From Myxococcota bacterium (lineage in GTDB: Bacteria > Myxococcota_A > UBA9160 > JAFDDA01): DNA of 64,000 bases. The stretch lies in assembly GCA_965228475.1 (NCBI GenBank), contig OZ245817.1, positions 4,352,001 to 4,416,000 on the forward strand. Reading direction: 5' to 3'. Below the pieces are notes generated by a model. The model did no database searches, was not told the origin of the DNA, and worked only from the letters and a program-made list of their open reading frames with translations. The position numbers were made by a program, and so were the translations under genes. Positions 7,390 through 34,655 of the stretch are shown here, piece by piece (within the stretch, counting starts at the first letter, position 1; each line of letters starts with the position of its first letter).

Positions 7390-7492
7390 CCCCGCGCCGA
7401 GCGGACCCGGACCCAGGCCCGACGCGCGGAAGGCTACCAAACATGAATTGGGGCGCCCTGTTGAGCCTCCGGCCGCAGCGCCTTGTTGCGCT
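7390..7492 (-). repeat. Degenerate attC relic
   Basis: Minus strand GCGCAACAAGGCGCTGC...TGGTAGCCTTCC shares two blocks with the attC at 10462-10596; the R' end is lost. Confidence 0.5.
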
Positions 7493-9906: not shown

Positions 9907-10042
9907 CCGGATCTGGCCCCCGTGTTCAGCAGCGCCGACGGCGCTGACGCTCAGCGCTGCACCGCCGAGACCGACGCCAGAATCCTACCACGCAACACTT
10001 GGGCACGAGCCTGTCGCGTCCGCTGTAGTGCTTCGCTAGGCG
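9907..10042 (-). repeat. Degenerate main-family attC
   Basis: The central body matches the main repeat; R'' reads GCCTAGC and R' is destroyed. Confidence 0.8.
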
Positions 10043-10467
10043 GCACGCTCTTCACGCGATGAGCCCACTAGCAAAGAGCCCGCGAGGCAGGACCCGCTCG
10101 TGAAGGCTGCACCAACGAGCTGCTCGAGGCGCTCGAAGAGCCCCGGCGGTTCCGCCCAGTAGACGGAGGTGAAGGCGAGGACGACGTAGAGCACCGCAGG
10201 CACGAGGACCCACCTCCTTGGGTGCGTAGACTCGACGAGGTATGCGGTGAGACCACCAACGCCGATTGCAATGACGGCCTCGGGAAGACCTAGGACGATC
10301 GGGGAGAGCAAGGCGAACGAGAGCTCACTCTTGTACGTGATGCCCTCGACGAGGCGAGCCCAAGGCATCGAAAGCCAGAACATGGCCCACCGCGAGAGAA
10401 GACACGCGCCGACACCGACAAGAACGTTCCTTGCATGGACGCGACTGACTACCACCGCGATGCCCAA
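10036..10467 (-). CDS. Cassette membrane protein
   Basis: Hydrophobic ORF filling the inter-attC space; the TTG start lies in the core GTTGGGC. Confidence 0.6.
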   Translation of the reverse strand: MGIAVVVSRVHARNVLVGVGACLLSRWAMFWLSMPWARLVEGITYKSELSFALLSPIVLGLPEAVIAIGVGGLTAYLVESTHPRRWVLVPAVLYVVLAFTSVYWAEPPGLFERLEQLVGAAFTSGSCLAGSLLVGSSREERAA

Positions 10468-10596
10468 CGGAATGGGCGCTCAGCTGCCACCAACACGCTG
10501 ACCGCCAGCGGCGCGGCAACCCCGTCCCAGTGCCGGAAGGCTACCAGACTTGGTTCGAACCCGGTGTTGGTGGTCAGCTGCAGCGCCTTGTTGGGC
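10462..10596 (-). repeat. attC, divergent family
   Basis: GCCCAAC aaggcgctgcagctg...cagctgagcgcccattcc GTTGGGC; arms are complementary and the interior differs from the main family. Confidence 0.9.
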
Positions 10597-10749
10597 AGCA
10601 TGCGCAACCACGGTCTCAGCCGATCGCACTTGAGAATGCGAGGCCCCACCGCCACGATTCAACGACGGCTTTGCGCCGTTGGCAGGCGCTCGACTTCAAG
10701 CATCTCGGCAAGTAGCTTGAGTGCGATGACCGAGCTCGGCAAGTCTCCG

Positions 10750-11268
10750 ATGGTTGGCAACCGCATTGTCGTTACCGGCATGGCCGGTGCAGGCAAGAGT
10801 ACTTTCTCGCGGACGCTGTCGACGAAGACTGGCCTTCCGGTCATCCATCTCGACCTCCATAGCTGGAATCCAGGCTGGCTTCGGGTGCCCCAGGGCGAGT
10901 TCCTCGAGAAACAACGAGTCCGGCTTGCTGGGGATCGGTGGATCGTCGACAGCAACGACGTCGATGACGACCTCCTGGTCGAGCGCGCAGACACACTCGT
11001 GATCCTCTCCACGCCTTGGTGGATCTGCTCGTGGCGGGCTTTCAGGCGCGGACTACGGAGACCTCGTGGTGCTCAACTGCCCGACGGTTGCGACGAATCG
11101 CTCTCGCAGCGGCTCCGAGATGAATGGGGAATCGTATGGCGCAACTGGCGGAACCGGAAGACAGTGCCCGAACGTGACCGTGCTCTTGCCTCGCACTGCC
11201 GTGGGTTCATGCAGGTCCACGTCTTGAGTTCGAAGCGAGAGGCGGCCGACTTCGCGGAATGTATCTGA
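10750..11268 (+). CDS. Adenylate-kinase-like P-loop protein (FlaR/topology modulation family), antisense to the array
   Basis: RIVVTGMAGAGKST, LPVIHLD, WIVD and ERADTLV motifs; start could also be ATG 10726. Confidence 0.85.
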   Translation: MVGNRIVVTGMAGAGKSTFSRTLSTKTGLPVIHLDLHSWNPGWLRVPQGEFLEKQRVRLAGDRWIVDSNDVDDDLLVERADTLVILSTPWWICSWRAFRRGLRRPRGAQLPDGCDESLSQRLRDEWGIVWRNWRNRKTVPERDRALASHCRGFMQVHVLSSKREAADFAECI

Positions 11269-11319
11269 GGGGCGGCGTTGGGCCGAGAACGGACGGGCGC
11301 AGAATGAACTCTCGATGCT

Positions 11320-11454
11320 GCCGAACGGATCAGGTCTTCAGCTGCGCCCAACAGCGCTGACCGCCAACGCCGGGGCACGACGTCCGCCGCCAGGATGGCA
11401 CCACGAAGCGATCGGAGCGAGCTGCTGGGCGTCCGGTTCAACCGCCTGTCAGGC
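11320..11454 (-). repeat. Degenerate attC
   Basis: Cores read GCCTGAC...GTTCGGC; the ggatcagg..ttcagc end is retained. Confidence 0.7.
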
Positions 11455-12207
11455 CGCCGGATCCGATGGCTCGCCCGCGGGAGTCGCATCCGGTGGCGAA
11501 ACAGTCAGAACGATCTTGCCGGACTCGGAGGCGGTTTGGAGAAGGCGCAGCTGGAAGAGGCCCGGGTTCTTGTCAAAGACTCGCGCCGCGTTTGCCAAGC
11601 TCCGAAGTGCGGCGGTCTCTCCGCGTGCTCGCTCGAGGCCCGCCTGCGCTTCCTGCCTGGCACGGGCGGTTTGCGAGAACGCCTCTTTGAGAGACCCCGG
11701 GAACATGATGTCCTTGATCGAAATCGATCGAAGTTCGAGACCCAGCGCCCTCGCCGAAGGTTCGACCTCGACTTGGAGCCTCGCAGAGAGGTCGGCGCGA
11801 GACTGGAGGATTTCTTCGATCGGCTTCTCGCCAATGGCGCCCCGAAGGGCCGCCTGTGCCTTGGCGTAGAGCGATTCCTCGTAGCTGGCAGATTCCAAGG
11901 TGGCTGCCTTCGGGTCCGAGACCCGAACTTCAAGGAGTAGACTCACTTTCAGTGAGACGCCATCCGACGACAGCAGTTCTTGGCCCGGAATCGTGATGAT
12001 CCGGGGCCGCGCCTCAAGGAGCTGTATGGAGGTCAGGGGCACGAAGGTCCAGTAGCTACCCGGGGAAAGGACCCCTGCGAACTTTCCTCGGACGAAGCGG
12101 ACCGCATGTTGGTACTCGAAGACGGTAATGCGGCGGATGACCATCGAGAAGCCCGCGAGAAAGATGGCGAGCAACAGCGCGAATCCGAGAAAGCTCCAGA
12201 AGGTCAT
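11449..12207 (-). CDS. Slipin / SPFH (band 7) family protein
   Basis: N-terminal TM helix, GQELLSSDGVSLKVS, IKDIMFPG and ARGETAALRSLANAAR; GAGGAG ribosome-binding site. Confidence 0.92.
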   Translation of the reverse strand: MTFWSFLGFALLLAIFLAGFSMVIRRITVFEYQHAVRFVRGKFAGVLSPGSYWTFVPLTSIQLLEARPRIITIPGQELLSSDGVSLKVSLLLEVRVSDPKAATLESASYEESLYAKAQAALRGAIGEKPIEEILQSRADLSARLQVEVEPSARALGLELRSISIKDIMFPGSLKEAFSQTARARQEAQAGLERARGETAALRSLANAARVFDKNPGLFQLRLLQTASESGKIVLTVSPPDATPAGEPSDPAA

Positions 12208-12235
12208 ACGTGAATCTCCTCGGACCGAGCCTCAA

Positions 12236-12416
12236 GGGGGCGCAGACTGGAGGCGGGAACCCGAAGCTCACAAGGCCCCCAAAACTGCTGCGTTGCCGCT
12301 GCCCCCCTGAGACCGGCTTTTGGGATTCGAACCCGAGGCTTTCGCCCACCCGAGGGAGGGCAATGCACGGAACGCGGCATGAGATTCATGATGCGCCGCT
12401 GCCGTCTCCCAGACGG
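12236..12416 (-). ncRNA. Candidate structured RNA or leader with a tRNA T-arm-like motif upstream of the slipin gene
   Basis: Hairpins CCGTC-tggga-GACGG, GCGGC..CATGA-atc-TCATGCCGC and GGC-GAAA-GCC; GGG-TTCGAAT-CCC at 12322-12334; long stem GGGGGGCAG...CTGCGCCCCC; TGGTATTAT at 12418-12426 just upstream. Confidence 0.55.
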
Positions 12417-12433
12417 GATAATACCAAGGAGTT

Positions 12434-12535
12434 CAGGGCGCTGACACTCAGCGCTGCACCGCCGTGATTGAGGCCAGGATCCTGCCACGACACTTCGGGA
12501 GAGCCCTTGGCGCCGGCTTCAAGGCCTTGGCTGAG
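12434..12535 (-). repeat. Truncated degenerate attC
   Basis: Main-family body gggcgctgacactcagcgctgcacc...aaggccttgg; the R'/L' end is missing. Confidence 0.75.
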
Positions 12536-12547
12536 CGGCGATGCAGC

Positions 12548-13063
12548 CTATCCGCGCGGAGCGTGCCGAGAGCGCTGCTGCGAGCCCAACCACCGCGCGA
12601 TCGCGGGTGCGTGGAAGGTGAGGACGTAGCCAATGAGGAGCTCAGCAACCGCCGAGACTCGATACGGCCATACAGTTGAGGGATCCGGATCTGGGCCGGG
12701 CTCTACGTTTCCCACGATCCAATCCGCCGAGAGGTACGCCAGATAGAGAAAGCCCGAGACGAAGTAGAACAAGCCGACGAGCGTCACGACGTTCTCGAGT
12801 GTGAGATAGCTCGACTCGTCGGAGCGCTCAGCCCTTGGCGGGCGCCCGAACAACGAAGCGGCAAGTGAGTACCGCCCGAAGATCAACGAGAACCCGATGC
12901 CAAGGGACGCGAGTAGCGGACCCAGGGTGACGAACAACCCGAACGCACCGATCGGCCCATGGACAACCTGCATGAAGAAGAAGCTCGCCAGGGAGATCGA
13001 CTTGTACAGAAGGAAGAAGCCACACAGGGAGATCGCGACGACACCGAGGTCATATCGATGCAA
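12548..13063 (-). CDS. Cassette membrane protein
   Basis: Four hydrophobic helices; GGAGGTGA ribosome-binding site. Confidence 0.7.
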   Translation of the reverse strand: MHRYDLGVVAISLCGFFLLYKSISLASFFFMQVVHGPIGAFGLFVTLGPLLASLGIGFSLIFGRYSLAASLFGRPPRAERSDESSYLTLENVVTLVGLFYFVSGFLYLAYLSADWIVGNVEPGPDPDPSTVWPYRVSAVAELLIGYVLTFHAPAIARWLGSQQRSRHAPRG

Positions 13064-13209
13064 GTCACCTCCTCACCTTCGCCGCCCAACGGATCAGGCC
13101 TTCAGCAGCGCCGAGGGGCTGACACTCAGCGCTGCACCACCACGACCGACGCCAGGATCCTACCACGGCACTTTGTACCCGAGCCGATGGCGGCCGCTGC
13201 AAGGCCCTA

Positions 13210-13668
13210 CTAGACAGCCGGCCAACCAACCGGCCACTCCTCTATGTCTCGGAGCTCTGATGTGTAGGCAGCCTCGTTCGTCGCGACCTTGCTCTGGCAG
13301 TGAATCGCGCAGCGATGCATGGTATCGGTTCGGACTGACCGTCCGTCATTGAAGTACTGCTCGTTCGTCGTCCGATCCTGCCATCGAATCTCGCTAAACG
13401 AGAGCCTCGCCTCTAACGAGGCCTGAGTAAGGGCAGCTATCGGGATTCGGTTTGCCTCGAGATCCTCGAGAAGCCACAAGCGAAGCTCCTCCGCGATGGA
13501 GAGCTTAGGAATTGACCTACCCTCGAACGCACAGCTCCCAGACAGCACGTCCACCCGGATCGTGCCCGAGCCCAGCTCGACGAGTCGAGGCTTGGAACTG
13601 ATGAGACGCCAGCCACAGAACATGTGGCAGATGGTGTCTGCAGTGTGTTGGAGTCGTTTCCTTCGCAT
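13210..13668 (-). CDS. Cassette hypothetical protein
   Basis: ORF fills the cassette; ICHMFCGWRL; stop falls at the attC edge. Confidence 0.7.
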   Translation of the reverse strand: MRRKRLQHTADTICHMFCGWRLISSKPRLVELGSGTIRVDVLSGSCAFEGRSIPKLSIAEELRLWLLEDLEANRIPIAALTQASLEARLSFSEIRWQDRTTNEQYFNDGRSVRTDTMHRCAIHCQSKVATNEAAYTSELRDIEEWPVGWPAV

Positions 13669-13684
13669 CGGGTCTCGCCCGGCG

Positions 13685-13814
13685 GCCTAACGGATACGGC
13701 GCTCAGCTGCAGCCACGGCCATGAAGTTCAGCGGAGTGCCTAAGTGGAACCCAAATAGTACCAGGGTCCGATTGGACGGAGCTATTGGCTGTCAGCTACA
13801 GCACCTTGTTGGGC
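13685..13814 (-). repeat. attC, divergent family
   Basis: GCCCAAC aaggtgctgtagctgacagcc...ggctgcagctgagcgccgtatcc GTTAGGC. Confidence 0.9.
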
Positions 13815-16645: not shown

Positions 16646-16788
16646 CGAGTTGCCGCCTAACGGATCAGGCCTTCAGCAGCGCCGAGGGCGCTGAACCTCA
16701 ACGCCGCACTACCGAGACCGACGCCAGAATCCTACCACGCTGCCTTTGGGCAGACGCCCTTGGCGTCTGCTGCAAGGCCTTGTTAGGC

Positions 16789-17146
16789 GGCGGCTAACGT
16801 TCTCACTGCAAGAGGCGCGACGAAATAGGATTCTTGAACACGAAGCCGAGTGAGCCACCCGACCAGGGCTCAAACGAACACGACGTAGCGCGACGTAGGA
16901 CCCTCAGAGCCCGATGCCGCGCCCAGCCGAAGGAGCCGCAGCGAAGCCAGGCACCCCGAAGCCTGCCCCCCGAGGAGCCGGAGTGATTGCCTGCCGGAAC
17001 CGGTGCACGCCACCGAGCCGTGGAGCCGAGAACCCTGGAACGAGCCCGGCTCGAGGTAGCGCCTCACCATGAGCTCGCTGAAACCAGAAAGAAGAACGCT
17101 TCGGAAAGGCGAGCTGCACCTGGCTGAGGAAACCTGCAGGCAAGCC
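16789..17146 (-). other. ORF-less cassette, family A copy 1
   Basis: Only short low-complexity ORFs; near-identical to 22306-22663. Confidence 0.8.
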
Positions 17147-17697: not shown

Positions 17698-18026
17698 GGC
17701 GGCTAACGTTCTCACTGCAAAGAGGCGCTGGATGCGCCTACACAATGACGCGCCGCTAACGGCTGCGACCTATCGTGACGCAACTCCCGCGCGCTTTGAC
17801 TGCCCACCCGAAGAAACCGGACCGACGCCAGACACCCCGGAGGTCGCCCCCGAGGAGCCGGCGTGATTGCCGGCCGGAACCGGTGCACGCTACCGAGCTG
17901 TGCAGCCGAGAACCCTGGAACGAGTTCGGCTCGAGGCAGCGCCTCACCATGGGCTCGCTGAAACCAGAAAGAAGAACGCTTCAGAAAGGCAAGCAGTAAC
18001 TGGCCGAGGGAACTTGCGGGCAAGCC
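17698..18026 (-). other. ORF-less cassette, family A diverged variant
   Basis: Shares both termini and the block ccccgaggagccgg...ctgaaaccagaaagaagaacgcttc with family A; reading frames are not conserved. Confidence 0.8.
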
Positions 18027-18168
18027 GCCTAACGGATCAGGCCTTCAGCAGCGCCGAGGGCGCTGGCTCTCAACGCTGCGCTACCGAGGCCGACGCCAGA
18101 ATCCTACCACGCAGCAATTGGGCACGAGCCCTTGGCGTCTGCTGGAAGGCCTTGTTAGGCGGCGGGCT

Positions 18169-21855: not shown

Positions 21856-22171
21856 GGGAAGCCGCGCCCTACCGCTGCGCACAACGCAAAGCGACTTGCC
21901 CCCAGCCGAAGCCCTCCCCTTTGCTCGCAACGGCTCGTGATGCGCAGCCTCACGGGACGCCAGAAACCGGACCTGCGAGGAGCTCGCGCCAGGGCGCGAA
22001 CCCGCTCGCCGACGCGCTAGAGCCCAAGGCCAGACGCCGAGGCGCGACGGGCCCTGGACAGCCACACCGGCGAAGACGGCGAGTGACATGACGTTGGCAA
22101 ACTGGAAGAGGTGAGAAGGGAAAGAACGTTCGGGCCGACACTGAAACCAAGAAAAGAATCGACTGCTTGCC
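21856..22171 (-). other. ORF-less cassette, family C
   Basis: No credible ORF; same strand skew as family A and a shared ctgaaacca-gaaa-gaa block. Confidence 0.65.
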
Positions 22172-22305
22172 GCCCAACGGATCAGGCCTTCAGCAGCGCC
22201 GAGGGCGCTGAACCTCAACGCCGCACTACCGAGACCGACGCCAGAATCCTACCACGCTGCCTTTGGGCAGACGCCCTTGGCGTCTGCTGCAAGGCCTTGT
22301 TAGGC

Positions 22306-22663
22306 GGCGGCTAACGTTCTCACTGTAAGAGGCGCGACGAAATAGGATTCTTGAACACGAAGCCGAGTGAGCCACCCGACCAGGGCTCAAACGAACACGA
22401 CGTAGCGCGACGTAGGACCCTCAGAGCCCGATGCCGCGCCCAGCCGAAGGAGCCGCAGCGAAGCCAGGCACCCCGAAGCCTGCCCCCCGAGGAGCCGGAG
22501 TGATTGCCTGCCGGAACCGGTGCACGCCACCGAGCCGTGGAGCCGAGAACCCTGGAACGAGCCCGGCTCGAGGTAGCGCCTCACCATGAGCTCGCTGAAA
22601 CCAGAAAGAAGAACGCTTCGGAAAGGCGAGCTGCACCTGGCTGAGGAAGCCTGCAGGCAAGCC
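22306..22663 (-). other. ORF-less cassette, family A copy 2
   Basis: Two substitutions seen relative to 16789-17146; carries the same attC variant. Confidence 0.8.
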
Positions 22664-22797
22664 GCCTAACGGATCAGGCCTTCAGCAGCGCCGAGGGCGC
22701 TGTCTCTCAACGCCGCACTACCGAGACCGACGCCAGAATCCTACCACGCAGCATTTGGGCAGAAGCCCTCGGCGTCTGCTGGAAGGCCTTGTTGGGC

Positions 22798-24725
22798 AGC
22801 AGCCACGAACCAACCTCCCCTCTTGAGCGCAGACTGTGCTCAAGAGACCGGAGCCTCCAGAAACGACAACGACAGATCTGGACGAGTGAGCCACTCGAGC
22901 ACCGGCGATGAGCAGCCAAGGCGGCGACCTAGGATGAAACCAGGCCCTTGCCCTGCCCCGCTCGGCTTGGCGGCTACGACGCCAGACGCCGACAAAGCCA
23001 CGGTGCGCAACGCACCGGGAGACCGAGACAGATGCGCCGAGGAATCAGCCGAGAATCCTAGTGCGAACTCGGTCTGAGATCTGAGCCGAAGATCTGAACA
23101 AAGAACCCGAAACCAAGCCGCTCTCGAGCAAGGAGCGTTCACTCAGGATGCGCAGCAGAACGCTGCCCAACGGATCAGGCCTTCAGCAGCGCCGAGGGCG
23201 CTGACTCTCAACGCCGCACTACCGAGACCGACGCCAGAATCCTACCACGCACCAATTGGGCATGAGCCCTTGGCGTCTGCTGATAGGCTTTGTTGGGCAG
23301 CTGTCACGAACAGCCACCACCCAACGCAGGCCGTGCTCACGAAGAACCTGAGCCTCCAGAAAGAACAGCGACAGATCTGGCCGAGTGAGCCGCCAGAACA
23401 GCACCGACGAGCAGCCGAAGCAGAGGAGACGACCCGCCAAGGGCCGAACAGAGGATGAAACCAGGCTCTTGCCCTGCCCCGCTGCGCCTGGCCGCCACGA
23501 CGCCAGACGCCGACAGAGCCACGGTGCGCAACGCACCGGACGACCGAAGCACAGGCGCCGAGAAACCAGCCGAGAATCCTAGTGCGAACTCGCCATGTGA
23601 CCTGGGCCGAAGATCTGAACAAAGAACCCGAAACCAAGCCGCTCTCGGGCAAAGAGCGTGAACTCAGGATGCGCAGCAGATCGCTGCCCAACGGATCAGG
23701 CCTTCAGCGGCGCCGAGGGCGCTGACACTCAGCGCTGCACCACCGTGGCCGACGCCAGAATCCTACCACGAGACTTTGAACCCGAGCCCTTGGCGTCCGC
23801 TGCAAGGCTTTGTTGGGCAGCTGTCACGAACAGCCACCACCCAACGCAGCCCGTGCTCACGAGGAACCTGAGCCTCCAGAAAGACAACGACAGATATGGG
23901 CGAGTGAGCCACAAGAGCTGCGCCAGCGAGCAGCCGAAACAAAGGCGACGAGCTCCCGGGGCTCGAACCGAGGATGAAACCAGGCTCTTGCCCTGCCCCG
24001 CTCGGCCTGGCCGCCACGACGCCAGACGCCGACAAAGCCACAGTGCGCAACGCACCGGACGACCGAAACAGATGAGCCGAGAACTCAGCCGAGAATCCTA
24101 GTGCGAACTCGCCGTGCGATTCGGGCCGAAGACCTAAACAGAGAACCCGAAACCGAGCCGCTCTTGGGCAAGGAGCGTGAACCCAGGATGCGCAGCAGAT
24201 CGCTGCCCAACGGATCAGGCCTTCAGCAGCGCCGAGGGCGCTGACTCTCAACGCCGCACTACCGAGACCGACGCCAGGATCCTACCACGCAGCATTTGGG
24301 CACAAGCCCTTGGCGTCTGCTGAAAGGCTTTGTTGGGCAGCTGTCACGAACGGCCACCACCCAACGCAGGCCGTGCTCACGAGGAACCTGAGCCTCCAGA
24401 AAGAACAACGACAGATCTGGCCGAGTGAGCCGCCAGAGCAGCACCGACGAGCAGCCGAAGCAGAGGCGACGACCTGCCAAGGGCCGGACAGAGGAGGAAC
24501 CCAGGCCCTTGCCCTGCCCCGCTCGGCCTGGCCGCAACGACGCCAGACGCCGACAAAGCCACGGTGCGCAACGCACCGGACGACCGAAACAGATGCGCCG
24601 AGAAATCAGCCGAGAATCCTAGTGCGAACTCGCCATGTGACCTGGGCCGAAGATCTGAACAAAGAACCCGAAACCAAGCCGCTCTCGGGCAAGGAGCATG
24701 AACTCAGGATGCGCAGCAGATCGCT
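22798..24725 (-). other. Four consecutive ORF-less cassettes, family B (22798-23164, 23299-23685, 23819-24204, 24339-24725)
   Basis: Homologous 367-387 bp bodies, each with its own attC; indels break all reading frames between copies. Confidence 0.85.
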
Positions 24726-24859
24726 GCCCAACGGATCAGCGTTAAGCGGCCGGCAACAGCGCCGACCGACTCCGCCGAGACACCGAAGTATGCCGCCAGA
24801 CGGCACCCAAGGTCAATTGAACGCAGCTGTTGACGGTCCGCTTCAACGCTTTGTTGGGC
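24726..24859 (-). repeat. attC, divergent family
   Basis: GCCCAAC aaagcgttgaagcggaccgtcaacagc...gctgttgccggccgcttaacgctgatcc GTTGGGC. Confidence 0.9.
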
Positions 24860-24894: not shown

Positions 24895-25509
24895 CTAGGG
24901 TTTGGCCGGACGCTGGTCGATGAGGCCCAGGCGAGCCACTCGGCTCTGGGGCTCGAGCACGGCTCCGGGCGCGATCACCGCATTCGCTCCAATCCGTGAC
25001 CCGTCGCCGATGAGCGCGCCGAACTTCTCAACCCCGGTATCGACGGTTGCGTCGCGCCAGACGAAGCGAATCCGCTTCTCGGTCAGTTCGTTTCGGTAGT
25101 TCGCGACCTTCGCACCGGCTTCGACGTTCACATCAGTACCGAGAATCGAGTCACCCACGAAACTGAGGTGAGCGACCTTGGAGGCTCTCAGCATAAACGT
25201 GGATTTCAGCTCGCACGCAGGCCCAACAATGCATGCCTCACCCACGAAGACGCCGCCTCGAAGGTAGGCGCCCGCCGCGACGAGTGAGTTCGCGCCCACG
25301 ATTGCAGGGCCCTTGACCACCGCGCCACGCTCAATCTCTGCGGATCTGTGGACGGCAACGTCGCCTTCGATCTCGAAGTCGGCGGGTAGCCCTCGGATCG
25401 CGGCTGCGACTAGCTCCGCCGACGTCGAGGTGGGCAGCCATGGATCTCCTTCGACATGGCCGAACGGGCTCGACACCCATTCAGAGGCGAAGTCTGCAAT
25501 GCGGATCAT
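24895..25509 (-). CDS. Hexapeptide-repeat (left-handed beta-helix, GlmU C-terminal-like) transferase
   Basis: GAVVKGPAIVG, AHLSFVGDSILG and KFGALIGDGSRIGANAV; may start at TTG 25530. Confidence 0.9.
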   Translation of the reverse strand: MIRIADFASEWVSSPFGHVEGDPWLPTSTSAELVAAAIRGLPADFEIEGDVAVHRSAEIERGAVVKGPAIVGANSLVAAGAYLRGGVFVGEACIVGPACELKSTFMLRASKVAHLSFVGDSILGTDVNVEAGAKVANYRNELTEKRIRFVWRDATVDTGVEKFGALIGDGSRIGANAVIAPGAVLEPQSRVARLGLIDQRPAKP

Positions 25510-25670
25510 GCTGTGAACCGTGCCGCCCAACGGATCAGGCCTTCAGCAGCGCCGAGGGCGCTGACTCTCAGCGCTGCACTACCGAGACCGACGCTAGGAT
25601 CCTACCACGCGGCGTTTGGGCAGATGCCCTTGGCGTCTGCTGCAAGGCCTTGTTAGGCGGCCGGGCGCGC

Positions 25671-26824: not shown

Positions 26825-26982
26825 GCGCCGCCGCCCAACGGATCAGGCCTTCAGCGGCGCCAAGGGCGCTGACACTCAGCGCTGCTCCACCGTGGCCGAC
26901 GCCAGAATCCTACCACGACACTTTGAACCCGAGCCCTTGACGTCCGCTGCAAGGCCTTGTTGGGCTGCAAGGCGAGAACGCC

Positions 26983-31847: not shown

Positions 31848-32159
31848 TCAATAAGCGAGAAAGTCGGACAACTGCGATTGCCACTCCTCTAGGGGGTGAC
31901 TCGCCAACACGCAGATTGCCAAACCAGCCGCTTCGATCTCGCTGAGCGTCGCGACCTGCAGCCCGGTCGGAGCGAGATCCGATGGAGAAAGCACTTCGTT
32001 CAGCTCTCCGGCGGGGGGCACTTCACGCCACGCAACGCCGCAAGCAGGGCAGAAGACGAAAACGCGCCCCCCGACAAGGTCTCTGGCGAAGAACAACCCA
32101 CCGATGCCTACGCAGACGGGACACGAACCAGCCGAGTGAATCTTACCCTTGGGACTCAT
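31848..32159 (-). CDS. First-position cassette: small zinc-ribbon protein
   Basis: CPVC...FVFCPACGVAW motifs. Confidence 0.7.
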   Translation of the reverse strand: MSPKGKIHSAGSCPVCVGIGGLFFARDLVGGRVFVFCPACGVAWREVPPAGELNEVLSPSDLAPTGLQVATLSEIEAAGLAICVLASHPLEEWQSQLSDFLAY

Positions 32160-32361: not shown

Positions 32362-33336
32362 TTAGAGGTGGTCCGCGGGGCTGGGGACGGCGGCGGGGCC
32401 TCGGTTGAGGACGTGGGTGTAGATCATGGTGGTCTTGGCGTTGCGGTGGCCGAGGAGTTCCTGGACGGTGCGGATGTCGGAGCCGGTCTCGAGCAGGTGG
32501 GTCGCGAAGCTGTGGCGCAGGACGTGGCAGGTGACGCGGCGGCCGATGCCCGCCCGGCGGCCCGCCTCGGAGACGGCGCGCTGGAGGCCCGAGCTGTGGG
32601 CGTGGTGACGCTGGCGCTCACCCGTTCGGGGGTCGGCTCCAATGCCCTGGCTCGGGAAGACCCACTGCCACTCCCAGAGGGAAGCGGCCCGGGGATACTT
32701 CCGCCCGAGCGCGTGGGGGAGGCGGACCCGGCCGAACCCCTTGGCCAGGTCCTGGCGGTGTAGCTCGCGAACGCGCTCGAGGTGCGGGCCGAGCGCCGCT
32801 TCGGCGCTGCGTGGGAGGATCGCGGGGCGGTCCTTCCCGCCCTTGCCGTTGCGCAGCGTGATCTGGTGCAACCCGAAGTCGATGTCCCGCACGCGCAGGC
32901 GGAGACACTCCATGAGCCGCAGGCCCGAGCCGTAGAGCAAGGTGCCCATCAGGCCGTAGGTCGGGGAGAGGCCGTGGAGCTCCGCCAGGACGAGCCGGAT
33001 CTCCTCCCGCGCCAACACGACGGGGAGCCGCCGCTTCGGCCGCGCACGGACGCGGTCGCGAAGGCCCTCGAGTTCCCGGCGCAGCAGGACGCGGTAGGTG
33101 AAGACGAGCGCTGCGAGTGCCTGGTTCTGGGTGGAGGCCGAGACTTCGCGTTCGGTCGCGAGCCAGTTCAGGAACTCGACGACTTCGTCCGTCCCCATCT
33201 CCTCCGGGTGGCGCTTCTCGTGGTAGAGGATGAAGCGGCGCGTCCAGTGGACGTAGGTCTTCTCCGTCCGCGGGCTGTAGTGGCGGACACGGATGGCGTC
33301 GCGCAGCTGATCGAGGAAACGAGGCGGCTCGCGCAC
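32362..33336 (-). CDS. intI: Integron integrase
   Basis: [52 protein letters not shown], the IntI-specific insertion [44 protein letters not shown] and [11 protein letters not shown] 33336 preceded by GAGG. Confidence 0.98.
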
Positions 33337-33370
33337 GTCTGGCCTCGGGGACCAGCGGGGAGAGGAAGCG

Positions 33371-33376
33371 ATTATA
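33371..33376 (-). promoter_or_regulatory. Candidate -10 box of the intI promoter
   Basis: Perfect TATAAT 35 nt upstream of the intI start in otherwise GC-rich DNA. Confidence 0.5.
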
Positions 33377-33416
33377 GGCAGCGTCGGCCGGCGCGGCGAA
33401 CGCGGAAGGCCCTGCC

Positions 33417-34655
33417 CTACTCCCGCCCGAGCGCGACGTCGCGGCAGATGGCCGGGGCGCGGACGGGGTTGCAGCGGGCCGGGAGGTCGCCGGGCAGGTC
33501 GACGGAGTAGTCCGTGAAGCGCGGGTCCGGGCGGAAGTAGTCCGTGCTCACCCACTGGGCGCCGCTCGCGAGGGCGGCGTCGCGCTGGGTGGTGTCGCCC
33601 GTGCGGGCCTGCTCGGTATCGCCGTCGGCGCGGGTGCGGACGACGTAGCCGGCGGAGACGAGGTCCGGGATCAGGTTCGGGTCGCTGCCCTGGGGGTTGT
33701 TGACCTTGACGAAGGCGGCGTCGGGCTCGCCGGGCGTGCTGTTCGTGAACAGGATGCGGCCTTCGAGGCTCTCGGCGCCGTCGCGGTAGAGGTCCCGGTG
33801 CGCGCCGCCGTTGTCGTGGGCGAACATGACCTTGCCGCGCAGCTTGCCGAGCGTCGGCCAGCCCTTGGTCAAGATCGCATGCTCGAGCGTCGGCGAGGTG
33901 TGGCGCACGTCGTCCGGCAGGATGATCCGGTCCTCGGGGAAGACGGAGAGGATCTCGGCGTCGAGATCCCGGTAGAGCGCCGAATCGAACTTCACCACCG
34001 TCGGCAGGATCGGCACGAAGAAGTCGCTGTCCTTCGCTTCGACGAGGATCAGGATCGGCAGGTGGTTCGGGTTCGCATCGGACCAGGCCTTCACCTGCTC
34101 GAGGCAGGCGACGAAGGTCAGGCACGTGGTGTCGAAGTCCGAGTGCTGGACGTGCAGCACCTTGAAGCCCGGCTCGTCGAGGGCCGGTTCGCCGCTCTCG
34201 ATGTCCTCGCCGATCAGCGAGAGAGCGATGCGCGTCGAGTAGAGGCCGCCTTCCGGGTCCGCGAAGACGTCGAGCTCGATCTGGCGGATGCCGTCGGCCT
34301 CGAACTGAACGGGGAGCGGGTCGTGGCTGTACTGCCAGGCGAGCGCCATGGGGTCGAAGCTCAGGAAGAGATCGAGCAGCGCCTGGCTCGGCTCGATGTG
34401 ATAGCTGTTGTGGCTCCCGATCACCTGGACGTCGTTCAGGCGCAGGCAGAGGTCGGCGATCTTGCGGTTGAAGAAGGCGACCCAGCGCCCGATGGCCTTG
34501 TTCGGAAACAGGTCTTCGACCGTTTCGTAGAGCGCCTGTTGGGCCGGGGCCATGGAGCAGAAGACGTCGTCGCTCTCGGCGCGCGCGGAGGCGGGCACGG
34601 TCAGGAGAAGAGCGGCGAGGGCCAGGACGGGAACGCGGAGCTTCAGCTTGGGCAT
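33417..34655 (-). CDS. Secreted Ca-dependent phosphoinositide-specific phospholipase C-like protein
   Basis: Signal peptide; [29 protein letters not shown] and SGAQWVSTD motifs. Confidence 0.88.

Follow-up and report, generated by a model that had tools for sequence, protein, structure and literature searches.

Four paralogous gene-less cassettes beside the integrase of a chromosomal integron in a Myxococcota bacterium

Integrons of Vibrio are known to carry cassettes that hold no gene. As described by Boucher et al. (2006, BMC Evol Biol 6:3; PMC1382264), such non-coding cassettes lack both protein matches and a synonymous-site pattern, their homologues are found in close relatives only, at >80% identity over the whole length, and it is these cassettes that tend to have paralogues in their array. 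Two explanations are offered there: the cassettes are selfish elements, or they have a function that is useful to the integron. Here we describe four cassettes, called family B, from a 64,000-nucleotide stretch of the chromosome of a Myxococcota bacterium (contig OZ245817.1, positions 4,352,001 to 4,416,000; hereafter the window, in whose own numbering coordinates are given unless stated otherwise). They are gene-less mobile integron cassettes, elements of a type familiar from Vibrio since 2006. We regard it as highly likely that the four form one paralogous family of gene-less cassettes, and we ask below what their bodies might be for.

Four tandem cassettes and their integrase

The segment 22664-24731 consists of four complete integron cassettes in tandem, c1 to c4, which lie in an array beside the integron integrase gene intI. 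The features are as follows, with scores for the attC recombination sites taken from the array's own attC profile and periodicity meaning base-by-codon-phase periodicity:

24339-24725, minus strand: body of c1, the copy nearest intI, 387 nt; non-coding, periodicity p 0.072, 4 private substitutions
24205-24338, minus strand: attC of c1, 134 nt; 135.6 bits with nhmmer, DNA fold z -2.89
23819-24204, minus strand: body of c2, 386 nt; periodicity p 0.33, 30 private substitutions
23686-23818, minus strand: attC of c2, of a second subtype; 127.2 bits
23299-23685, minus strand: body of c3, 387 nt; periodicity p 0.056, 13 private substitutions
23165-23298, minus strand: attC of c3; 133.0 bits, 95.5% identical to the attC of c1
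22798-23164, minus strand: body of c4, the most diverged copy, 367 nt, with a 22-nt deletion; periodicity p 0.15, 41 private substitutions
22664-22797, minus strand: attC of c4; 132.2 bits, DNA fold z -3.71
32362-33420, minus strand: intI, integron integrase gene; TIGR02249 at 422.5 bits (cut-off 265), over profile positions 1-315 of 315

Each unit runs from the TT of the preceding GTTGGGC core through a body of 367-387 nt to its own attC of ~134 nt, which gives spans of 24731-24211, 24210-23692, 23691-23171 and 23170-22670 on the minus strand. Measured from crossover to crossover, the cassettes c1 to c4 are 521, 519, 521 and 501 nt long, in agreement with the spacing of the repeats. The cores that flank every B body read GCCCAAC or GCCTAAC at one end and GTTGGGC at the other and conform to the pattern RYYYAAC / GTTRRRY. 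The attCs that bound the bodies score 127-136 bits and their DNA folds into imperfect hairpins (z -2.9 to -3.7). On the plus strand, the 3' arm of the hairpin carries two single-base bulges, which we take to be the mark of a recombinogenic bottom strand. The product of intI also matches PF00589 and PF13495. Three features by which integron cassettes are recognized are present: attC cores, attCs that fold as imperfect hairpins, and an array adjoining an integron integrase. It is shown that the B units are whole non-coding cassettes, each with its attC, that belong to one diverged family and stand next to an intact integrase. An earlier reading of this DNA, made from the sequence alone (hereafter the sequence-only reading), had likewise recognized gene-less cassettes with attCs, mobilised by IntI, and its four homologous bodies of 367-387 bp were recovered with the same coordinates and sizes; they are 80-95% identical.

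The copies differ from one another to unequal degrees. Bodies c1 and c3 are 94.8% identical, c1 and c2 89.7%, c2 and c3 88.1%, and c4 shares 80-83% with the others. The indels between copies measure 22, 2, 4 and 1 nt, the single-nucleotide deletion setting c2 apart from c1 and c3. Short-read contigs from two sequencing runs showed no difference to the unique parts of c1, c2, c3 and c4, and the copies are therefore real and no assembly artefact. The attCs of c1, c3 and c4 are mutually 94.8-95.5% identical, while that of c2 has its nearest relatives in the attCs at 26833 (96.2%) and 29579 (95.5%) rather than in its neighbours. The proposal that the attC interiors differ between the copies thus holds clearly for c2 only. 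The separate subtype of the c2 attC also argues, as had been suspected, that the four did not arise in one recent tandem duplication.

Two features internal to the bodies were looked for as well. A search for tandem repeats within the B bodies returned three trivial rows only. A degenerate attC hidden in a B body was considered and rejected, as the attC profile, run with all filters off, found nothing there at E ≤ 10.

Coding potential and distribution of the bodies

The array provides its own standard for recognizing genes. All 13 open reading frame (ORF) cassettes of similar size display codon-phase periodicity (p 0.014 to 8e-8), phase 1 being marked by G and phase 2 by T. None is seen in the four B bodies (p 0.056-0.33) or in three other gene-less bodies (p 0.8, 0.13 and 0.95). 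This represents a clean internal control within one array, with periodicity in 13 of 13 coding cassettes and in 0 of 7 gene-less bodies. ORFs of 64-162 amino acids do occur in single copies of B, differing from copy to copy, and there is no frame with a start codon common to all four. The absence of a shared ORF, asserted in the sequence-only reading, is therefore borne out, and a conserved translated ORF in all copies, which that reading had named as evidence to the contrary, was not found.

The long open frames are explained by a composition that is poor in stop codons. The plus strand of B contains 27-28% A and 8.5-11% T, in agreement with the sequence-only reading, which had called it A-rich and T-poor, so that the sense strand is A-poor (8.5-11%) and T-rich. 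Stop triplets are as frequent as in dinucleotide shuffles on both strands, and selection for open frames was rejected on this ground. A 41-codon frame starting from the TTG of the core was also discarded; it is open in three of the four copies and shows no synonymous excess. The 42 variable sites among 238 ungapped alignment columns are spread over the codon phases as 17/12/13. The best of the six frames reaches p 0.094 for synonymous excess, which is nonsignificant once the number of frames is counted.

Searches for protein relatives were negative as well. Six B ORFs matched no Pfam family at E ≤ 1, a 108-amino-acid B frame had no relative at E ≤ 0.001 among 5.8 billion protein clusters (57 candidates), and tblastn of 291 ORF segments of the array against B gave nothing better than E 0.002. 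Taken literally, the ORF-length rule for gene-less cassettes excludes family B: its single-copy ORFs of 64-162 amino acids exceed the limits of 150 bp (Boucher 2006) and 210 bp (Blanco 2024), both of which were written for AT-rich Vibrio. The confirmatory rule of Boucher 2006 describes B well, as there is homology over the whole length, no synonymous pattern and no protein match. A protein-coding cassette or a pseudogene would be recognized by periodicity, synonymous excess or a protein homologue, and B has none of the three. We conclude that the B bodies are non-coding, with a long-decayed gene as a minor possibility.

The genome that carries family B contains the four copies only. The body was absent from two genomes of the bacterial family (0/2) and from all 192 other genomes of the order (0/192), seven of which matched the attC part of the query. 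A sample of 400 other genomes of the phylum yielded only matches of 29-53 nt (E 1e-4 to 9e-4). An exact scan of genome contigs with an attC 19-mer returned 13 single matches and no array; an exact scan of metagenome contigs with a B 18-mer returned 13 loci whose matches extend over no more than 18-22 nt, and a search of the retrieved loci for B blocks with mismatches found isolated short matches only. We take the matches of the exact scans to be due to chance. Two runs, from two other studies, contain pieces of B at 87-97% identity, each run with two variants or more, and the run with the highest share contained one further B variant at low depth; parts of the window that had no cover in two of the runs were given no weight. 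These pieces show that other populations carry the family too, in several versions. The best reading is that B represents a lineage-restricted family of paralogous gene-less cassettes.

Related attCs were encountered elsewhere. A second cluster of nine attC matches, of the same attC family and on the minus strand, lies at genome position 3906323-3917864; all eight of its bodies show codon periodicity and family B is absent from it. Related attC-like sites (70% over 140 nt and 96% over 25 nt) are also present in two metagenome-assembled genomes whose records label them Gammaproteobacteria and Deltaproteobacteria.

B is not the only gene-less cargo of the array. The other bodies of this kind are:

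22306-22663, minus strand: gene-less body of family A, neighbour of B; other copies at 16789-17146 and 17698-18026
21856-22171, minus strand: b16, a single-copy gene-less body; periodicity p 0.95, 9.8% A on the sense strand

Together with the four B cassettes, b16 and the adjacent A copy (b17) form a row of six gene-less cassettes (21856-24725), ~2.9 kb without a gene. Seven of the 34 bodies in the array are paralogous and all seven are gene-less: the four of family B and the three of family A. Within family A, identities are 99.4% and 86%. Two A cassettes, 16655-17146 and 22172-22663, stand 5.5 kb from each other among unrelated neighbours; their bodies share 99.4% identity and their attCs 99.3%. 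It seems that a single cassette was recently copied to a site in mid-array, a hint that the integrase is active, or that gene conversion is. Kinship between families A and B found no support: their local alignment reached z 2.5 compared with 2.9 for a control pair, and a BLASTP match between their frames (E 0.009) fell on a low-complexity stretch.

Passenger DNA or functional cargo

How might such bodies multiply and persist? We tentatively favour the idea that they are passengers, or selfish DNA, spread by their attCs, and we rate its chances as slightly below even. The attC would be the sole functional part of each unit, since the integrase could fold, cut and rejoin it. The body would travel along and drift nearly neutrally, with no need for a sequence-specific cargo function. 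Excision and insertion mediated by attC would account for the multiplication and persistence of the family, and unequal or gene-conversion-type recombination between attCs that are 87-96% identical could copy units or re-pair them. A unit that is not expressed would presumably cost the host little. We prefer the passenger reading because none of the tests for a specific element gave a positive result, in the presence of a working positive control, and because the substitutions and indels look unconstrained. The behaviour of the gene-less families is also typical of such passengers: only gene-less bodies have paralogues in this array, one A cassette was copied to a place 5.5 kb away, and variants of B occur in runs of two other studies.

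The sequence-only reading had emphasized five invariant blocks. Four of them are indeed invariant; the hairpin block is not, as c2 reads CAGTGCG...CGCACCG (alignment column 173). The longest invariant run spans 26 columns (p 0.20) and the dispersion of the variable sites is random (p 0.31; 42 sites, 238 ungapped columns). The invariant blocks are real, are no more than expected by chance at such divergence and are not evidence of constraint. The sequence-only reading had also called the cargo 'selected', and this we do not uphold: variable sites are randomly placed, indels are tolerated, Rfam contains no family, folding shows no excess and the scan found no promoter. Neutral divergence, which that reading had listed among the outcomes that would speak against it, is borne out in part, namely in the random substitutions and in the lack of structure beyond that of shuffled sequences.

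Several points weigh against the passenger reading. The copies have diverged by 5-20% yet still stand in tandem, and relatives at 87-97% occur in other samples; persistence of this kind is taken by Boucher et al. to indicate purifying selection (PMC1382264). In B and the other gene-less bodies, the sense strand is far poorer in A and richer in T than expected from any of three comparisons: the coding cassettes at their four-fold sites (A 0.14, T 0.18), the genome-wide skew and the attC sites themselves. No other feature hints at constraint, and the composition of B, at least, may thus be under some. One sense frame has a ratio of nonsynonymous to synonymous substitution (dN/dS) of 0.32-0.77, compared with ~1 in the other two. 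The tests of covariation and constraint have low power with four sequences only. Finally, promoter activity is reported for most of the Vibrio gene-less cassettes that were tested, and software was unable to predict it (Blanco 2024, NAR 52:2961; PMC11014356), which makes our negative promoter scan weak evidence. A replication-linked skew was considered separately as the cause of the B composition and rejected.

The main rival, which we consider unlikely, is that the B cassettes are promoter cassettes: a promoter in the body, sense or antisense, would drive or silence neighbours that lie far from the array promoter. Precedent exists, as gene-less cassettes of Vibrio and Treponema have demonstrated activity and, among 29-30 from Vibrio, most were active on the sense strand; the failure of in-silico prediction in Vibrio means that a blank scan is not decisive (PMC11014356). 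In an array of ~22 kb, distal cassettes would need internal promoters. Moreover, the sense strand of each B copy contains exactly one TANNNT. It reads TAGGAT, lies at body position 105 and falls within the longest invariant block. The details of the sequence are less favourable. A consensus scan for sigma-70-like promoters was blank in every B body on both strands, no TTGNNN partner is found 15-19 nt upstream of TAGGAT, and the stretch upstream varies between copies. The sense strand has only 2-3 TA dinucleotides; the antisense strand is almost without T and TANNNT is near-absent from it. Words resembling sigma-54 and extracytoplasmic function (ECF) sigma factor promoters, picked out by eye, are weak and partly variable between copies, and terminators show no excess over the shuffle expectation. 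What follows the four B copies downstream is two more gene-less cassettes, not genes. If bodies so poor in TA did hold promoters, promoter cassettes would be a general design of integrons and not a side effect of AT-rich genomes.

A broader idea, which we judge rather less probable still, is that the A-poor gene-less bodies (B, A and b16) form a functional class of cis-acting cassette whose poverty in A is kept by selection. Two versions are possible. The bodies could be promoter cassettes using the single conserved TAGGAT, which is shared with nearly every attC apex, or they could be binding sites or decoys for a factor that recognizes the word at the attC apex.

That the body gives rise to a non-coding RNA, a small or antisense RNA acting by base pairing or protein binding, we hold to be very unlikely. 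Such a role has been proposed for gene-less cassettes generally (PMC11014356). In B, the CGGTGCG/CGCACCG hairpin has a single substitution, which leaves a G-U pair in the minus-strand RNA only, and a 5-bp hairpin at alignment columns 240-256 contains one compensatory change. Beyond these two hairpins the search for structure was negative. Rfam had no family at E ≤ 1 over 6000-34000; one chance microRNA match (18034-18158) fell outside B. The whole body of c1, folded and compared with shuffles, gave z +0.80 and +0.76 on the two strands. In windows of the four-sequence alignment with shuffled columns, the bodies ranged from z -1.5 to +2.2, compared with z -2.0 on both strands for windows holding an attC. 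This positive control demonstrates that a real hairpin does register in the test. On both strands the consensus fold had a positive, that is unfavourable, covariation term, and the random placement of the substitutions speaks against an RNA as well.

We give the same low rank to decayed protein-coding cassettes, the remains of a small gene whose start codon and frame would have been lost before amplification or in its course. In all four copies, one sense frame runs without a stop (alignment columns 33-330), and it is the frame with the low dN/dS noted above; indels that break the frame between copies are pseudogene-like, and the abundance of T recalls the T-rich second codon position of the coding cassettes of the array. 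Openness of this frame is accounted for by composition, however, and three of the four copies have no start codon for it before column 144-165. No residual periodicity is left, and the synonymous excess is nonsignificant, with a permutation p of 0.065 before correction for the number of frames and the six-frame p of 0.094. The lack of a Pfam family, of a relative among the protein clusters and of a similar ORF in the array argues against a gene, too.

Least probable of all is a cis-acting DNA site or decoy, in which TAGGATTCT, common to the body and nearly every attC apex, would bind one factor of the host or the integron: this 9-mer does lie both in the longest invariant B block and at the attC apex, and a second one, CTGGCGTCG, was seen by eye to be common to both, but the probability that 134 and 387 nt share a 9-mer by chance is ~0.18 per strand before composition is considered (our hand estimate), the bodies give no match to the attC profile at E ≤ 10, and we know of no factor that binds the attC apex word.

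The surrounding array and comparison with known systems

The B cassettes are part of a chromosomal integron of about 39 cassettes. Its 39 attC sites, ~134 nt each and all of one family, extend from 9908 to 31833, an array of ~22 kb. They were detected by nhmmer with a profile built from the array's own sites (all filters off, E ≤ 10). Cassettes are read on the minus strand, as is intI. This strand carries 30 of the 34 longest cassette ORFs and every cassette ORF with Pfam support (Hexapep, Rce1-like, Band 7 and PEMT). The 3' end of intI faces the array, 529 nt separating its stop codon from the array end. As intI and the cassettes are co-directional, the integrase gene is aimed at the array that it serves, an arrangement that is atypical and known from Treponema (PMC11014356). 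The gap between the intI stop codon and the first attC holds an ORF of 103 amino acids (31848-32159) without a family match.

The cassette upstream of c1 sets its boundary, as the R' core of the following attC is the 5' border of c1:

24726-24859, minus strand: divergent attC of the upstream hexapeptide-transferase cassette; 68.0 bits

The ORF of that cassette (24895-25530, minus strand) matches Hexapep (PF00132). Between 13815 and 31833, the ORF cassettes are very compact, with leaders of 0-33 nt and trailers of 0-35 nt. Several of their ORFs begin in or at the preceding attC core, and any ribosome-binding site must therefore sit within the upstream attC. At the distal end of the array (9908-13814), the attCs are degenerate (54-87 bits), and a faint attC match (7420-7488, E 0.0017) lies between larger ORFs (Band 7, PEMT). 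This end, together with the faint match, seems to be an old stretch of the array in decay. By cumulative GC skew of the genome, replication starts near 4.83 Mb and terminates near 2.34 Mb, so that the sense strand of the cassettes is the leading strand and the bottom strands of the attCs belong to the leading-strand template. Large sedentary integrons have been reported to be typically oriented in this way.

The finding is so far an ordinary one. No test shows the DNA of family B acting beyond being carried and copied. Its likeness to the Vibrio non-coding cassettes described by Boucher et al. is one of pattern, similarity of sequence not being expected. Like them, the B bodies lack a shared ORF, a synonymous pattern and protein matches, several paralogues occur in one array, these are similar over their whole length at 80-95% nucleotide identity, and homologues are confined to close relatives. 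Unlike them, B resides in a host of ~70% GC whose intI is co-directional with the cassettes, its four copies are adjacent, its bodies are longer than the 150-bp ORF limit and its sense strand is strongly A-poor. The scattering of gene-less cassettes in a long sedentary array is shared with the Vibrio and Treponema examples treated by Blanco 2024 (PMC11014356). The promoter cassettes of AT-rich Vibrio differ from B, which is GC-rich and has almost no TA dinucleotides and no -35/-10 pair. Family B thus extends the pattern of paralogous gene-less cassettes, known mainly from Vibrio and Treponema, to a high-GC genome with a co-directional intI.

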